DNA of 64,000 nucleotides from positions 32,001 to 96,000 of IMG/VR virus record IMGVR_UViG_3300042514_001858. One strand, 5' to 3'. The stretch is from a virus. A program made the position numbers and the translations under genes. This document shows, piece by piece, positions 6,485-47,525 of the stretch. Position 1 is the first letter of the stretch. Every line of letters starts with the position of its first letter. Below the pieces are notes generated by a model, which worked only from the letters and a program-made list of their open reading frames with translations, ran no database searches and had not been told where the DNA came from.

Positions 6485-7054
6485 TTAGACCAGTCCACGA
6501 TAGAAATGATACGCGAAAGTCGCAGTGAATGTTTTAATTTCACCAGTTCCATCAGCAATTTCATAAGAAACTTCGCTGATATTTCGAAGAGAAGCACCAA
6601 TCAATTGGATGGTTCTACCAACTTGCATTTCACTACCCGATGTCACATTGGAACCTCTTTGACAAGGGATTTGAAGAACATCCAAAGTAATTACGGATTC
6701 ATATCCTGGCATACAAATATTACCAGTGGTGGTTTCGTTGTCGAATAGGACTCTACTTGCTCTTTCGAGTTTCTCTCTGATATCCAAATTTTGATCAAGA
6801 TAAAATTCTACAGACCAACCTTCAGAACCTGGATAGCTAGATTTTCCAGGAATATTGAAAGTTTGACCAGAATAATTCACCTGTTTGTTTTCAATATCTC
6901 TTCCAGGAAAAGTAGCTGTTTTAGCGTAAACCAAATCAGTCTCACCATTCAAGGAGAGTCCTGTGATGTCGATCTGTTTAACACGGAAAAGGAAGTCGCG
7001 AGCAAATTGTTTTTGCATCGCCTGATTCATAAAATTTTCGATTGTGGTCGCCAT
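6485..7054 (-). CDS. gp19: Tail tube protein
   Basis: ARDFLFRV, AKTATFPGR, VNYSGQ, WSVEF, IKTFTATFAYHFY; immediately downstream of the sheath gene. Confidence 0.8.
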   Translation of the reverse strand: MATTIENFMNQAMQKQFARDFLFRVKQIDITGLSLNGETDLVYAKTATFPGRDIENKQVNYSGQTFNIPGKSSYPGSEGWSVEFYLDQNLDIREKLERASRVLFDNETTTGNICMPGYESVITLDVLQIPCQRGSNVTSGSEMQVGRTIQLIGASLRNISEVSYEIADGTGEIKTFTATFAYHFYRGLV

Positions 7055-36146: not shown

Positions 36147-36500
36147 TTAATTATTACCAATAGTATAATTCGACAATATCTTATCACCATTTTTCATCAA
36201 ATACATCATGATCTTCTCCAGATTACCTTTCAGCTTAATTAGATCACCATTTTTTTGATATTTTTCCATTTTAATGATATTTTCCAATTTGGAAGACGCT
36301 TGAAATGCACTGTCTTGGATATTAGCTAAATATTGAGGCAGTCCTTCAAATTCATATGGGAGAGTGTCTGGTGATTGCGCCATTTTCTCATCCGTTTTAT
36401 ATTTTCTCATCTGTTCAGAAGGATTTAGAGGATTTTTGAAATCAAGATCAATAGCACCAGAGGCAATTGCAGTAGAATAAGGAGAATTTGAAGCAGCCAT
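36147..36500 (-). CDS. Hypothetical late protein
   Basis: TAAATA 8 nt upstream; divergent from 36537. Confidence 0.65.
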   Translation of the reverse strand: MAASNSPYSTAIASGAIDLDFKNPLNPSEQMRKYKTDEKMAQSPDTLPYEFEGLPQYLANIQDSAFQASSKLENIIKMEKYQKNGDLIKLKGNLEKIMMYLMKNGDKILSNYTIGNN

Positions 36501-43179: not shown

Positions 43180-43460
43180 TTCTTTCTCTTTTTCTGCTCT
43201 GAATTAATGTATTTCGTGATGAACTTACTACGTGAAATAGTAGGATCATAATCTAGAAACACTTTAACAAGTTCTTGGTCAGAGTCAAGAGATAAAATGG
43301 TTTTCAAAATTGTTTTTAGCCTTTCCTCTTGGAGAGTAGTCACGAAAACATTCTGAATGGATAATTTTTTTCCTTTAAGATGATTTATAAAGGAACAATA
43401 GCATAGAAAGAGGTGATTTGTTTCCTCTTCCACAATTTCTGATGATGGATCAAAGCTCAT
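43176..43460 (-). CDS. Hypothetical protein
   Basis: 94-aa ORF with ATGA overlaps. Confidence 0.65.
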   Translation of the reverse strand: MSFDPSSEIVEEETNHLFLCYCSFINHLKGKKLSIQNVFVTTLQEERLKTILKTILSLDSDQELVKVFLDYDPTISRSKFITKYINSEQKKRKK

Positions 43461-44320
43461 AATTCTGTAAGTGTTTCGCTGAATTTCAAAAATTCTTTGG
43501 TGATTTTACCTCCTGATGCCCATTCGCCGCCACCACCGTCACCACCGTCACACAGATTAGCAGCCATTTTAGCAATGTCAACCTCCGATCCTTTACATTT
43601 TCTAAAAGAAACGAATTTTGTATCAGGGTTCATTACAATTACAGCGTCTCCTTTATAATTTTCCATAATGGAATGGCTCAATTCATTCACGGAGAACTTA
43701 GAAATCGTGGAAATGACCTTAAATCCTTCCCATTCTCCTGTGAATAGTTGAATTTGCTCCAATTCTTTTTCTAATTCCTTGAAAAAACCTTCAGCAAGCT
43801 TAACTTCTGTGGTAGTGAACCCGTCAAACCCGTTCCAGAAGCGATTTACAAAATTAATAAAGCGATTTCCACCAGATTTACGATAAAGAGCATTGAGATA
43901 CTTGGTTTCTTCGTGTTTTAGATCATATGAATTGTAATCATCGACGTATAGGAAGAATTTTTTCAAATCTTTCGTAAATTCCACCTTTTCTTTGAATTTT
44001 TTATACAACATCTTGGTGCAAGATGAACATTCTTCCTGAATCATGGTTGAATCCCATGTTTTGAAGTCTTCGGGACGGTCTGAAACGAACACCACACGAT
44101 GATCGTCAATCTTTTTGATAAGATTTTGATCTAGAACCATGCCGACTACGAAGATTTTATCATAATCTTCTGCATTTTCTTTAGCCCATGGTAGATATTG
44201 TTCTTCAAACTTACCAAAAAAACAATGACGATACTCAAAATTCTTAAATAAATTACCTAAAAGAACTGTAGAACCAATACCATCCAAATCTGAGTTGACC
44301 CAAGCAAAGATACGTTGCAT
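43457..44320 (-). CDS. DHH/DHHA1-family phosphoesterase-like protein with degenerate active-site motifs
   Basis: NSDLDGIGS motif I, VDDYNSY, VSFR...GGGGEWASG DHHA1-like end; start MQRIFAW. Confidence 0.7.
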   Translation of the reverse strand: MQRIFAWVNSDLDGIGSTVLLGNLFKNFEYRHCFFGKFEEQYLPWAKENAEDYDKIFVVGMVLDQNLIKKIDDHRVVFVSDRPEDFKTWDSTMIQEECSSCTKMLYKKFKEKVEFTKDLKKFFLYVDDYNSYDLKHEETKYLNALYRKSGGNRFINFVNRFWNGFDGFTTTEVKLAEGFFKELEKELEQIQLFTGEWEGFKVISTISKFSVNELSHSIMENYKGDAVIVMNPDTKFVSFRKCKGSEVDIAKMAANLCDGGDGGGGEWASGGKITKEFLKFSETLTEL

Positions 44321-44324
44321 GTCA

Positions 44325-44352
44325 TAATTACTCGGATTTAAAGAATTGTCAA
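44325..44352 (-). promoter_or_regulatory. TTGACA-N16-TAATTA promoter of the DHH gene, 4 nt before ATG
   Basis: Same arrangement at 45341-45368 and at 59077-59104. Confidence 0.6.
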
Positions 44353-44360
44353 TCATAATA

Positions 44361-44449
44361 ACACAACATGTCGCTCCATCCAACGGCTCAAAGTCGTCTG
44401 TTTCGTATTCAGAGTCTTACGTTCGCCGTGGATGAGCTAGACGTTCGGC
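44361..44449 (+). mobile_element. attC: Integron attC site 1 (89 bp)
   Basis: R'' ACACAAC, 5-nt spacer, L'' GCTCCATC, CAACGGC...GCCGTG, L' GATGAGC, 5-nt spacer, R' GTTCGGC; extra C in L'' and extra A give the two canonical extrahelical bases. Confidence 0.9.
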
Positions 44450-44997
44450 AAAATAATCCCCCACCCCCCTCCTCCCGACGACAAAGAGAAACAACAAACA
44501 TTATGACAGATAATACAAAGAAAGGATATTTTGATGAAAATCTCACTTTTGATGGGATACAGAAGACAATCGATGATTTAGTAACAAATTACCCAAATCA
44601 TATCGGCGTTATTACCGCAATTGGTAAGTTGGGTAGCTTAATGTCAATTTTACACGATGACAACAAAGAACAAAACCGACTAACAAAAATCCAGAATAGG
44701 CGAGTGGAGATTTTATCTTGGGTTGTCGGTGTTTGCACCTTGATTACGACATTTGCAACCATCATGAGTATCTGTAAGTGAATTACGGGCAAACCAATCC
44801 ATAATCTCTTTAACTTTTCTATCCTGTTCACGATTGAATGATTCTTGATATTCTTTTTCAGTGTCTCGTTTGTCAGCATTTGTAATAAATCTCCACATCC
44901 TAGAAAAAAATGAAGAAGCCGAACAAGACGCTCCATCCAACGGCGAAAACGTCTTTGATTGTTTCGGACTCTGTTTGCGCCGTGGATGAGCTAGACG
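44444..44997 (+). mobile_element. Complete integron gene cassette (554 bp, G|TT to G|TT)
   Basis: Begins TTCGGC, and its own attC R'' is GCCGAAC (exact complement of GTTCGGC), as expected for an IntI-integrated cassette. Confidence 0.85.
44503..44781 (+). CDS. Cassette ORF, 92 aa, with C-terminal transmembrane helix
   Basis: Canonical cassette orientation (towards attC2); ILSWVVGVCTLITTFATIMSIC hydrophobic tail. Confidence 0.6.
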   Translation: MTDNTKKGYFDENLTFDGIQKTIDDLVTNYPNHIGVITAIGKLGSLMSILHDDNKEQNRLTKIQNRRVEILSWVVGVCTLITTFATIMSICK

Positions 44998-45027
44998 TTG
45001 TGTATTATTTTTATTTTTATTTTTCAT
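44713..45027 (-). CDS. Reverse ORF starting in phage flank and reading through attC2 into the cassette
   Basis: 104 aa; strong promoter 9 nt upstream; QRLAHPRR...PLDGASCSAS is the attC bottom strand. Confidence 0.5.
   Translation of the reverse strand: MKNKNKNNTQRLAHPRRKQSPKQSKTFSPLDGASCSASSFFSRMWRFITNADKRDTEKEYQESFNREQDRKVKEIMDWFARNSLTDTHDGCKCRNQGANTDNPR
44918..45003 (+). mobile_element. attC: Integron attC site 2 (86 bp)
   Basis: R'' GCCGAAC, AAGAC, L'' GCTCCATC, CAACGGCG...CGCCGTG, L' GATGAGC, TAGAC, R' GTTGTGT. Confidence 0.9.
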
Positions 45028-45036
45028 AAGGTCTGT

Positions 45037-45064
45037 ATTGTATACTAGTTTTTAAGAAAGTCAA
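45037..45064 (-). promoter_or_regulatory. Sigma70-like promoter TTGACT-N16-TACAAT pointing into the attC array
   Basis: agtcaa 45059-64, attgta 45037-42. Confidence 0.7.
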
Positions 45065-45381
45065 CCATTTGATAATTTTTGCAATAAGTCCAATTCATCA
45101 TTGTCCATAATTTCTTCCTCATCAATCTTTTTGATAAGATTTTGATCTAGAACCATGCCGACGATAAAGATTTTATCATAATCCTCTGCGTTTTCTTTAG
45201 CCCATGGTAGATATTGCTCTTCAAACTTACCAAAAAAACAATGACGATACTCAAAATTTTTAAATATGTTCCCCAAAAGAATTGTTGATCCAATTCCATC
45301 CAAATCGCTATTGACCCATGCAAAAATTCGCTGCATGTTATAATTACCAATTTCTATAAAATTGTCAATAGGTGATTCCAT
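45061..45381 (-). pseudogene. Chimeric remnant: DHH N-terminus fused to helicase C-terminal tail
   Basis: 45122-45368 copies 44106-44352 (offset 1016); 45104-45124 is identical to 46252-46272; reading frame still open. Confidence 0.8.
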
Positions 45382-45411
45382 ATAAGAATCTTAGAATAGG
45401 ATTAAGAGAAA

Positions 45412-46203
45412 TCAAATAACTCTTGGTTCATTTTTAGATTTAATTACATAGCTACTCATAACCTTGTTATATAAATCAGGTTGAACTTTTTTCAACCTAT
45501 CAAAACCTATCATAGATTTATTATACATCAAATATGTTCTTATTTTTGAAAATGATTCTTTGCGTTCAACACATTCAGCATCGTAAATATATTTAATATT
45601 TCTCTCCAATCTTGTGAATCCTTTATCACCATCCTCATAACCAAAATTTAAATACCACATAATGTTATCAGGATTTTTTGGAGTTGCAGTGGTAAAAAAC
45701 CCAATTTTAAATTTGGTGTTTTCTTTTGGTTCTTGGACTCTGTTTTGTAGGCTATTAAATCCGCGTTGCCCCACTTGTGTCGAACTAGGATTATGTCCAA
45801 CCGAATATACGGAATATGCATATGCTGGATTGGATGAAAAATAGACTGAATTTCCTATAGCTTTGGAATCTTCACCCTTGGAAAAGGGGTCGGGATTTTT
45901 ATGTCCCCTATACACCAAAGAACCATCTTTAGGTAAAGAGTCGAACCCCTCTTTCAAATAAAATCCGTAATATTTCATCACCTGCTCCAGATATTCGTTT
46001 TCATCGTTACGAATATCTTGGGTAATACTTCCACTTCCCATAGTTTGTTTATACTGAACTGCATCATCACGATTTTTTTTATAAGATGCAACATCTTTAA
46101 TGGAAAAGCTATCATCTTTTCGATCAAACATAGTTCCAAAAGGTCTATTACCTTCCCTTTTTTTTGTGACAAATTCTTCAAAAAATATTTTAAACGATAC
46201 CAT
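45412..46203 (-). CDS. Putative ADP-ribosyltransferase-fold protein
   Basis: LVYRG ... VYFSSNPAYA ... YDAE (R-S-E-like); TAAATA-N5-ATG; MVSFKIFFEE N-terminus. Confidence 0.45.
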   Translation of the reverse strand: MVSFKIFFEEFVTKKREGNRPFGTMFDRKDDSFSIKDVASYKKNRDDAVQYKQTMGSGSITQDIRNDENEYLEQVMKYYGFYLKEGFDSLPKDGSLVYRGHKNPDPFSKGEDSKAIGNSVYFSSNPAYAYSVYSVGHNPSSTQVGQRGFNSLQNRVQEPKENTKFKIGFFTTATPKNPDNIMWYLNFGYEDGDKGFTRLERNIKYIYDAECVERKESFSKIRTYLMYNKSMIGFDRLKKVQPDLYNKVMSSYVIKSKNEPRVI

Positions 46204-46211
46204 TCCATTAT

Positions 46212-47525
46212 TTAATCACTCAACTTTTCAAGAAGGCTAAGTTCATTATTATCCATAATTTCTTCCTCATCATCTGCCTGATATATAGAAAGTGTGGAAT
46301 AATTAATTCTCATGGCTTGTGTCATTCCTCTCGGTCCGAACCTATTTTTCATCATTCCCAGACGAATTACTGCCATTTCTTGGTCTTCTTCGTTCTGGAA
46401 GATAGATACAATCACATCAGCAGTCATAACAATAGCCAAAGACTCAGCAACACCTGACATATCAGGGTTATTTTGTCCAACAGCAGATCTATTCAACTGA
46501 CAAGCTGAAATAATAGGGCATTTATAGACATAAGACAATGCTCTGACCTGTTCGCAGATGTTTTTACCCTTTTCATAGCTGTTACTACCAGCAGCAGTCA
46601 TCAAAGTAAGGTAATCAAGCACAATAGCATCAATTCTGATACCAGAATCTTTCATTTTCTTGATAAAAGCTCCCAATTGCTTAGGTGTAATCGTAGATGG
46701 GGGGAATTCTTTGATATAAATGCGCCCATCAGTGTTCTTATGCTCTTGTTCAAGGGCATGTCGAAGCGTTGGGACACAATTACGGAACTCCTTCATGGGA
46801 ATCTTCGTCACATTCGAAGCAATTCTCTTAGCATAGAGCGTTTCCGACATCTCCAGAGTCACAACAAGCACATGTTTACCTTGGGATGCCATGTTTGCCG
46901 CCACATTACCAAGGAAAATGCTCTTTCCAATGTTAGATTGACCCGCAAACACATACAATGCCTTACCAGCTTCTTGAAATCCACCGTCCAATGCCTCATC
47001 TAACCATGCCCATTTGGAAGAAATAGTGGTTTCATCACTCAAAATGTCATCAATGACCTTTTCAACATCACCATAAAGCTCAATTCCTTTATCAACATTG
47101 AGATTGATACCAGCAATCTTCTCAAATTTCTCCACGATCTTGGCGGTATCGGCTTCTCCTTCCGATATTTCTTCTGCTGACTCCAAAATGGAGTGATACA
47201 TGCCCCGTTCCTTGAGGAATCTTTCTGTATTCTCATACAATTCATCCTGATTGTGATTGGAATCGATCTCTTTGAATGATTCAATTAACTTTTTGAAGTT
47301 GGTTTTGAGTTCATCTGTCGTGAGATATGTCTTCACCTCTGTGAATGTGGGAAGAGATTGTCGTTTCTCGTAGAAATCTGCAACAATCTCAAAATATTTC
47401 GCAATATTTTTATCCGTGAAATACTTGGGTTGGACGTAATCAGCAATGGATGCCAGATAAGCACCATTCGTGATCGCGTTCTTCACAAGAACCTTTTCAA
47501 AATAATCAAAATCTATTTCAGACAT
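46212..47525 (-). CDS. gp41: Replicative DnaB-type helicase
   Basis: AGQSNIGKS, VTLEMSE, IKEFP, VLDYL, ACQLNR, AES...TAD, KNRFG. Confidence 0.95.
   Translation of the reverse strand: MSEIDFDYFEKVLVKNAITNGAYLASIADYVQPKYFTDKNIAKYFEIVADFYEKRQSLPTFTEVKTYLTTDELKTNFKKLIESFKEIDSNHNQDELYENTERFLKERGMYHSILESAEEISEGEADTAKIVEKFEKIAGINLNVDKGIELYGDVEKVIDDILSDETTISSKWAWLDEALDGGFQEAGKALYVFAGQSNIGKSIFLGNVAANMASQGKHVLVVTLEMSETLYAKRIASNVTKIPMKEFRNCVPTLRHALEQEHKNTDGRIYIKEFPPSTITPKQLGAFIKKMKDSGIRIDAIVLDYLTLMTAAGSNSYEKGKNICEQVRALSYVYKCPIISACQLNRSAVGQNNPDMSGVAESLAIVMTADVIVSIFQNEEDQEMAVIRLGMMKNRFGPRGMTQAMRINYSTLSIYQADDEEEIMDNNELSLLEKLSD

Follow-up and report, generated by a model that had tools for sequence, protein, structure and literature searches.

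Here, we describe a locus of an uncultured lake phage at which a phage promoter and a start codon directly adjoin attC, the recombination site of integron gene cassettes. The window, i.e., the whole stretch of DNA that was analysed, comprises 64,000 nucleotides (nt) and represents bases 32001-96000 of the 154-kilobase (kb) uncultured virus record IMGVR_UViG_3300042514_001858, which is estimated to be 75% complete. It is AT-rich, with a guanine-cytosine (GC) content of about 34%, and the genes near the attC site are all located on the minus strand. In the order of this strand we find a helicase gene, an open reading frame (ORF) of 263 amino acids (aa), an ORF of 106 aa, the promoter, the ATG, the site attC2, the cassette body, the site attC1, and a phosphoesterase gene of the DHH family (Table 1). 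This layout, in which the phage start unit adjoins the attC landing pad and is directed along the bottom strand into the cassette, is confirmed. Its structure is not an assembly artefact of this record, since independent contigs of other lake metagenomes span positions 44202-45151, with no differences in X3 and a single one in X5. The latter is located at 44993 and represents a variant that is carried by relatives. The phage is present in lakes from which 22 DNA runs contain 64% or more of the sampled words.

Table 1. Features of the attC landing site and its neighbourhood, in window coordinates. L numbers denote loci that were compared with the window; the bar in G|TT marks the crossover.
Feature	Coordinates	Strand	Remarks
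Cassette	44444..44997	+	554 nt, from G|TT crossover to crossover; delimited by the R-box swap and the 554-nt repeat spacing
attC1	44361..44449	+	89 nt; on the DHH side; R'' ACACAAC, R' G|TTCGGC
attC2	44918..45003	+	86 nt; belongs to the cassette; R'' GCCGAAC, R' G|TTGTGT
Phage promoter	45037..45064	-	TTGACT at 45064-45059, 16-nt spacer, TACAAT (-10) at 45042-45037
Family motif AAAAACTAGTATACAAT	45053-45037	-	ends in the -10 hexamer TACAAT; exact match to AAAAACTAGnnTACAAT
Start codon and leader	44998..45027	-	10-codon A-rich leader MKNKNKNNTQ; the R' core, read on the bottom strand, forms its last codons (ACA CAA C)
104-aa ORF	44713..45027	-	leader, translated attC2 bottom strand, linker and cassette gene; MKNKNKNNTQ, then RLAHPRR...PLDGASCSAS
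61-aa cassette gene	44713..44898	-	bottom-strand gene, MWRFITN...NPR; internal ATG at 44898
92-aa usual cassette gene	44503..44781	+	hydrophobic C-terminal tail; runs antisense to the phage promoter; 69-nt overlap with the 61-aa gene
DHH-family phosphoesterase gene	43457..44356	-	starts 4 nt past attC1
106-aa chimeric ORF	45061..45381	-	joins copies of the DHH N-terminus and of the C-terminal tail of the helicase; its TGA shares bases with the -35 hexamer
263-aa ORF	45412-46203	-	follows the helicase in minus-strand order; absent from L003-L006, present in L279 and L280
DnaB-like helicase	47525..46212	-	first in minus-strand order at the site

Both attC sites exhibit the anatomy that is expected of this element. 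Their core boxes follow the patterns RYYYAAC for R'' and GTTRRRY for R' with a G|TT exchange point, and GTTGTGT deviates from the latter at one position. The L''/L' stem is imperfect, with a bulged T and G that are extrahelical on the bottom strand, and the lengths of 86 and 89 nt lie within the range of approximately 57-141 nt. Since the bulged T and G are found on the minus strand, the minus strand is the attC bottom strand. The core halves are swapped between attC1 and attC2, and the halves are reciprocally complementary. We do not find a complete integron with intI, attI and a promoter Pc reading the top strand; the sole promoter at the site reads the bottom strand. The record as a whole, at its estimated completeness, contains no tyrosine recombinase and no match to PF00589, and thus cassette exchange would depend on a host integrase. 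Indirect evidence that an integron integrase may recombine the site is provided by the different cassettes in L015, L018 and L017. A role of attC2 as a minus-strand terminator was also considered and dropped, because the U-run begins more than 10 nt past the stem.

The original prediction, made from the letters of the window alone, had proposed a 'backwards integron', in which any cassette inserted at the site lands next to a fixed phage promoter and is expressed as a fusion of leader, attC and cargo. Promoter, spacer, ATG, ORF coordinates and peptide strings were recomputed and are all correct, and so are the lengths of the two attC sites and the stop within attC1. This site has stops in all three bottom-strand frames. 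The frame equivalent to that of the leader reads RLAHPRRT, then encounters a TAA at codon 11, and is in phase with the DHH start codon at 44356 (44449-44356 = 93). Due to this TAA, an empty site would give an 18-aa peptide, compared with the 104-aa ORF of the loaded site. The same attC1 with the same TAA is present in L015 and L018 and hence in all three carrier phages. An empty site, with a single attC between promoter and DHH gene, was not found in any locus examined.

Evidence for the promoter comes from a motif that is repeated in the phage genome. A generic sigma-70 scan was dropped as promoter evidence, as its count is not above chance (61 sites versus 53.6 +/- 8 in shuffles, no enrichment). 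The motif AAAAACTAGnnTACAAT, which consists of the -10 hexamer and the preceding bases, occurs in 12 copies with at most one mismatch in the 154-kb genome, all of them on the minus (coding) strand, with no copy on the plus strand and none when reversed patterns are used. Further copies are located at window positions 36148 and 34900 and at genome positions 364, 4754, 5415, 7152, 8088, 8810, 12971 and 17911 (minus). Eight of the 12 copies are followed by an ATG exactly 6 nt past the -10 hexamer, and the ORFs that start there measure 63-318 aa. Among the remaining copies, one has a 7-nt gap before a 4-aa ORF, and one is without a nearby ATG. The copy at genome position 7152 resembles the site described here in its 9-nt gap and its TTGACT -35 hexamer; the ORF behind it measures 86 aa. 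TAYAMT hexamers of the genome rarely have an ATG at +6 (13 out of approximately 240), and these 13 include the 8 motif copies. The arrangement of a -10 element, 6 nt, and ATG or GTG is also found at the second DHH copy and at the DHH genes of many relatives, behind other sigma-70-like promoters. The recurrence of this spacing at many motif copies and DHH genes suggests that this phage group starts many of its genes in a leaderless fashion, and the 12-copy class looks like a class of leaderless phage transcripts. Promoter and ATG at the landing site are supported as genuine phage-type expression signals. In the predicted RNA, the first 32 nt are unpaired and the attC hairpin follows.

For 31 relatives in IMG/VR, DNA upstream of the DHH gene is available. 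In most of them the helicase gene leads directly to the DHH gene, often with a TAATG overlap, and without attC; from this comparison of sequences, the promoter-leader-attC module is an insertion. The module is present in the close relatives L003-L006, in L015 and L018, in L013 (a short contig), in L017, and in L014. It lies between helicase and DHH gene in L015 and L018, where it is situated behind other inserted genes, while L014 is a second site approximately 13 kb away on the same contig as L018. That 28.9-kb contig thus carries two leader-attC landing sites (L014:8001-8312 and L018:6001-6255) with different promoters and different cassettes. The promoter is kept in L003-L006, L015, L018 and L017 and occurs as a variant in L013. 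Despite a different upstream gene, the homology of L015 begins at the -35 hexamer. Promoter and ATG are located just outside R' in every relative that has the site, as predicted.

In every context the ATG is found 8-9 nt past a -10-like element, in phase with ACA CAA CGT, the R' core on the bottom strand. Across five contexts with different promoters, ATG, A-rich leader and R' remain in phase, with a sole indel of 6 nt. A repeat unit of 6 nt accounts for the difference between the leader MKNKNKNNTQ and the variants MKNEI(N/D)TQ and MKKEINTQ. Among L003-L006 the cassettes are 100% identical, which rules out a dN/dS estimate within this group, while their flanks are approximately 97% identical. 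A search with the landing-site pattern gave no match in metagenome_contigs and one new locus, L017, in viral_contigs. At L017:4097-4624, the bottom strand contains a 175-aa ORF that passes through an internal attC in the frame of the leader ORF (QSSSTADGTPEINPK...PPLDEASCSAS) and runs for approximately 100 codons beyond it.

The ORF that starts at the leader ATG measures 104 aa in the window, 103 in L014, 100 in L013, 84 in L018, 83 in L015 and 70 in L017. As in the short ORFs of the ORF-11 type, it starts in the fixed platform, spans the crossover and receives its stop from the inserted cassette; a Shine-Dalgarno initiation region of its own is absent, and a leaderless-type layout is found instead. 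The window version is composed of the phage leader (10 aa), the translated attC (28 aa), a linker of 4 aa with little conservation, and the 61-aa cassette gene; the stretch TFSPLDGASCSASSFFSR spans leader, attC and linker. Among the relatives, P0007 is 99% identical to the 104-aa ORF, and P0008 (103 aa) and P0009 (100 aa) represent diverged in-frame versions. The prediction had suggested a search for leader-attC peptides at the N-termini of unrelated ORFs. Such predicted proteins exist: P0010 and P0011 agree with the window ORF over their N-terminal 38-40 residues, after which their sequences are unrelated to it. When the N-terminal 42 residues were used as a HMMER query against 1.84 billion representative proteins, only these two were returned, matched at residues 1-40. 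In a word search of 5.8 billion proteins, no leader-ORF versions of 30-56 aa were observed.

The cassette part of the ORF behaves as a gene in its own right. Over the 61-aa gene, changes at codon positions 1, 2 and 3 number 4/4/14 against L013 and 8/8/17 against L008, and the indels of 9 and 12 nt relative to these two are both in frame. Its substitution pattern indicates that the 61-aa bottom-strand ORF is a real gene under coding constraint. Its counterparts in the bacterial integron L008 and the arrays L009-L012 show 56% identity. In the linker that separates R'' from this gene we find 3/3/4 changes by codon position, with 1 synonymous and 7 non-synonymous changes, and hence no coding pattern; residues encoded by attC and linker are not conserved as protein. 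The codon that precedes W-R-F is ATG in the window phage and GTG in the bacterial and array copies, i.e., an own start is present in two of three lineages, which argues for an independent start of the 61-aa gene. Neither the 61-aa nor the 92-aa protein matches a Pfam or PHROG family, and a protein atlas search gave no match for the 61-aa protein.

On the top strand, the 92-aa protein has homologues that are 68-84% identical, and it is encoded by the first cassette beside intI in L008. In the protein atlas it falls into unnamed clusters only, some of them from Verrucomicrobiota. All of the usual cassette genes run against the phage promoter, in antisense: the 92-aa gene in the window, a 106-aa and a 159-aa gene in L015, a 78-aa gene in L018, and a 113-aa and a 399-aa gene in L017. 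In the sigma-70 scan, no promoter-like site was found on the plus strand upstream of 44503. With the usual cargo in antisense and no plus-strand promoter, the layout can express only bottom-strand content, and the proposal that any cassette is expressed does not hold for the usual top-strand cargo.

The attC sites point to the origin of the cassettes. The attC arms CATCCAACGGC and GCCGTGGATG have at least 120 matches each in genome and metagenome collections, with Verrucomicrobiota prevailing among the named genomes. These arms mark an attC family of 89 nt (L027-L226) that is very uniform and is spread among freshwater metagenome-assembled Verrucomicrobiota (Akkermansiaceae, Luteolibacter, Terrimicrobiaceae). 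Integrases adjoin members of the family, and in L008 the cassette of the window itself adjoins intI. From this family, Verrucomicrobiota appear to be the likely host phylum of the phage. L008 is a 122-kb bacterial contig, on which the same cassette (L008:4391-7000, 72% protein identity to that of the window) takes the first position beside a 412-aa integron-type integrase, with the converging 92-aa gene and the 69-nt overlap kept. The same cassette is found in arrays on other phage-like contigs, L009-L012. The L008 cassette has 37% GC compared with 56% for its locus, which raises the question in which direction the cassette moved.

Within the attC family, a length of 89 nt is found in 137 of 151 non-redundant members. 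Of the three frames, that of the leader is open through the attC in 88 of the 151 (58%), whereas another is open in 113 and the remaining one in 7. In these 88 members, the leader frame stays open past R'' for a median of 18 codons, and for at least 30 codons in 27 of them. The 90-nt attC version of the window's cassette, present in L008 and L009, would be out of frame with the leader. With a length that is nearly invariant and a frame that is open by default, the difference between 86 and 89 nt says little. The prediction had pointed to the 3-nt difference between attC1 and attC2, and had suggested testing whether homologous attCs preserve their phase and avoid bottom-strand stops. The difference is real, but carries little weight in view of the uniform family length, and avoidance is not apparent, as two of the three frames are open by default and attC1 itself is closed in all of them.

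How may the site work? From a biological point of view, a phage unit of promoter and start codon, of the leaderless type, directly abuts the R' end of an attC landing pad, and we suggest that this pad takes up cassettes from the Verrucomicrobiota integron pool, presumably via the host integrase. Transcription would start near 45030 on the minus strand and yield an RNA in bottom-strand sense of attC2, cassette and attC1. The ATG at 45027 would open a short pioneer ORF across the crossover, with a stop that is supplied by the resident cassette. In the present case, the ORF would enter the 61-aa gene in frame and give the 104-aa fusion, the form started at its own ATG at 44898, or both, and the 92-aa top-strand gene would be transcribed in antisense only. 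In our reading, the fusions follow from the layout, much like ORF-11 and ORF-18 in attI1, rather than from a system that evolved to express any cargo. We assign this explanation as a whole, a leaderless-type start at an attC pad with fusions that follow from the layout, a probability of about one half; a function of the site as an expression platform appears partly supported. The unconserved linker together with the internal ATG or GTG in two of three lineages fits a by-product fusion, and the lack of the whole module in most relatives speaks for the same reading.

Several observations weigh against it. The ATG at 45027 is situated 9 nt past the -10 hexamer where 6 nt are typical for the family, and hence the mRNA would carry approximately 3 extra 5' nucleotides. 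Inspection of the leader region revealed no Shine-Dalgarno sequence in front of this ATG. Within the ORF, the attC hairpin is reached after 30 nt, and the RNA of 45031-44890 is predicted to fold with -32.8 kcal/mol. Furthermore, the leader-frame ORFs are uniformly long, with none of 30-56 aa, and exceed what is expected of a pure by-product, though only L017 is an unbiased case. Finally, L013 carries GCG in place of the internal start and an ATG three codons later. This fits either a turnover of start codons or a reliance on the leader ATG, and the latter would mean a selected fusion.

Such selection is the core of the original proposal, in which the leaderless start, the open attC frame and the in-phase lengths have evolved for functional fusions of leader, attC and cargo. 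The first part, a phage start signal that reads the attC bottom strand into the cassette, stands; an evolved fusion system, in contrast, we consider rather unlikely. It is favoured by the fact that all six site-cassette combinations (with attCs of 86, 89 and 91 nt) keep the leader frame open and continue for 33-67 codons past the attC, whereas only 27 of the 151 bacterial members (18%) reach 30 codons or more. The in-phase 86- and 89-nt variants, the missing internal start of L013 at the usual codon, and the lack of short versions in the protein database point in the same direction. In several cassettes at these sites, the leader-frame ORF also covers a gap of approximately 80-140 nt between the stop of the usual gene and the attC. 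These counts, however, comprise only about four independent cassettes, three of which were found via called proteins of at least 57 aa; the fourth, L017, was found by its DNA pattern, is the only unbiased one, and runs 33 codons past the attC. The default openness of the frame (58% of the family) at nearly invariant length, the 90-nt version out of frame, the three closed frames of attC1, and the unconserved residues of attC and linker all speak against selection on the fusion. In addition, the loci compared contain no homologues of the peptides by which the ORFs of L015, L018 and L017 extend past the attC.

The prediction had also offered an antisense function. As we formulate it, the phage transcript would mainly silence the 92-aa tail-anchored and possibly harmful membrane protein, as the two converging RNAs would pair over the 69-nt 3' overlap, and the bottom-strand ORF would be incidental. 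RNA pairing over 3' overlaps is known from type I toxin-antitoxin loci. In every context the two genes converge and retain their 69-nt overlap, the C-terminal tail of the top-strand protein is hydrophobic, and the region upstream of 44503 lacks a plus-strand promoter-like site. The last point cuts both ways, as silencing may have no target in a phage that lacks a plus-strand promoter. Since moreover the bottom-strand ORF is itself under coding constraint, and the 92-aa protein has no family match and nothing that marks toxicity, we regard silencing as improbable.

It seems no more probable that the ATG is unused. The promoter would then be a relic or would, following the insertion, serve only to restore transcription of DHH and the genes behind it, and gene calling alone would have produced the 104-aa ORF. 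This would account for the missing Shine-Dalgarno sequence, the atypical 9-nt gap, the frame that is open by default, and the insertion of the module between genes that are otherwise coupled by a TAATG overlap. The DHH gene, however, keeps a conserved element of its own, TTGACA-N17-AATTAT, at 44352-44324 over its 5' end, and thus does not obviously need the leader promoter. Moreover, the ATG and its phase to R' are conserved across contexts with unrelated upstream sequence, and an ORF, of 86 aa, is likewise opened by the family copy at genome position 7152, whose gap is also 9 nt. Contigs from the metatranscriptome runs X23 and X24 are short and cover only 43459-43871, inside the DHH gene and outside the leader.

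A more far-reaching idea is that the cassettes of this freshwater Verrucomicrobiota pool are two-faced, with a top gene read from Pc in bacteria and a small bottom gene that adjoins the attC in phase with its open frame. For the expression of this bottom gene in particular, the phages would have evolved a leaderless start at the R' end of the landing pad, and would act as a 'reverse integron' sampling host cassettes via the host integrase. This idea strikes us as very doubtful.

Integron cassettes in phages are not new. Virulent phages carry integrase-less attC clusters (CALINs), and phage attCs are recognised by a bacterial IntI1 in an attC x attI1 recombination assay (Qi et al. 2023, PMC9892861). 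The window agrees with these in having attC sites and cassettes in a lytic phage without integrase. It differs in that the site is a conserved landing pad with different cassettes in related phages, one of which is also the first cassette of a bacterial integron. Further, promoter and start codon abut R' and read the bottom strand, and no such expression signal is described in the consulted sections of PMC9892861.

The closest functional parallel to a by-product fusion are ORF-11 and ORF-18 of attI1 in class 1 integrons, short platform ORFs across the crossover that take their stop from the inserted cassette, and for which the act of translation matters and not the peptide sequence (PMC8876359). 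As in these, the length of the window ORF is set by the cassette. ORF-11 has a Shine-Dalgarno sequence, is located on the attI side and the top strand, and crosses the 7-bp core only, whereas the window ORF is of leaderless type, starts on the distal R' side, uses the bottom strand, and crosses the whole 86-nt attC. Translation of upstream cassettes has been found to stabilise array mRNA (PMC11511950). In Treponema integrons, ORF-less cassettes with antisense-strand promoters are known (PMC8876359). They have in common with our case that the promoter fires against the usual direction of the array; there, the promoter lies inside the mobile cassette, and here in fixed phage sequence outside the array, as a member of a 12-copy family.

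T4-type phages contain promoter-early stem-loop (PeSL) modules, repeated early-promoter units that flank variable small genes and serve as recombination points, and the shuffling of these modules proceeds by homologous recombination. The present locus is PeSL-like in that mosaic scars abound in the region and module junctions coincide with the TTGAC of -35 elements. It differs in its variable unit, which is flanked by attC sites that carry G|TT, the signature of an exchange mediated by integrase. For the layout of the landing site as a whole, the literature searched contained no description, which does not prove that none exists.

While integron cassettes in phages were already known, the mode of their expression in phages was not, and the case described here provides a concrete and testable layout. 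It consists of a phage promoter class, a start codon phased to the crossover, a cassette shared with a bacterial integron, and relatives with other cassettes. If the start codon is used, an attC would be translated as protein, and the phage would read the strand that is silent in the bacterial integron, such that the same mobile DNA would code differently in phage and host. The observations also suggest Verrucomicrobiota as the likely host of an uncultured T4-like lake phage group, in which leaderless-type gene starts would be in wide use.

With respect to the neighbouring genes, a megablast search against deposited phages gave no match, and the helicase is at most 30% identical to Campylobacter phage helicases. 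The 263-aa ORF matches no Pfam or PHROG family, and the segment 45125-46224 is missing in L003-L006. Several recombination scars occur near the site, with junctions in the TTGAC of -35 elements (window 45061-45381 and 45125-46224, and L018). One of them is seen at L018:5809-5967, where a 52-aa ORF combines part of the DHH N-terminus with a segment from the C-terminal end of the 61-aa cassette gene (TDTHDGCKCRNQGA) and with LSNG, the tail of the helicase.

Two further observations concern the 5' regions of cassettes. At L009:5940-6000 and 6495-6550, and also in L008 and L012, two unrelated cassettes share a nearly identical 5' untranslated region of approximately 60 nt. This common region starts at the crossover (TTGTGCAGAAAATTATCTTT...), and its minus strand resembles the phage leader region. 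In the window, the 5' region of the cassette contains a C-rich tract on the plus strand (44456-44479). Its minus strand, GGGAGGAGGGGGGTGGGGG, is located just before attC1 and is Shine-Dalgarno-like, or could form a G-quadruplex.

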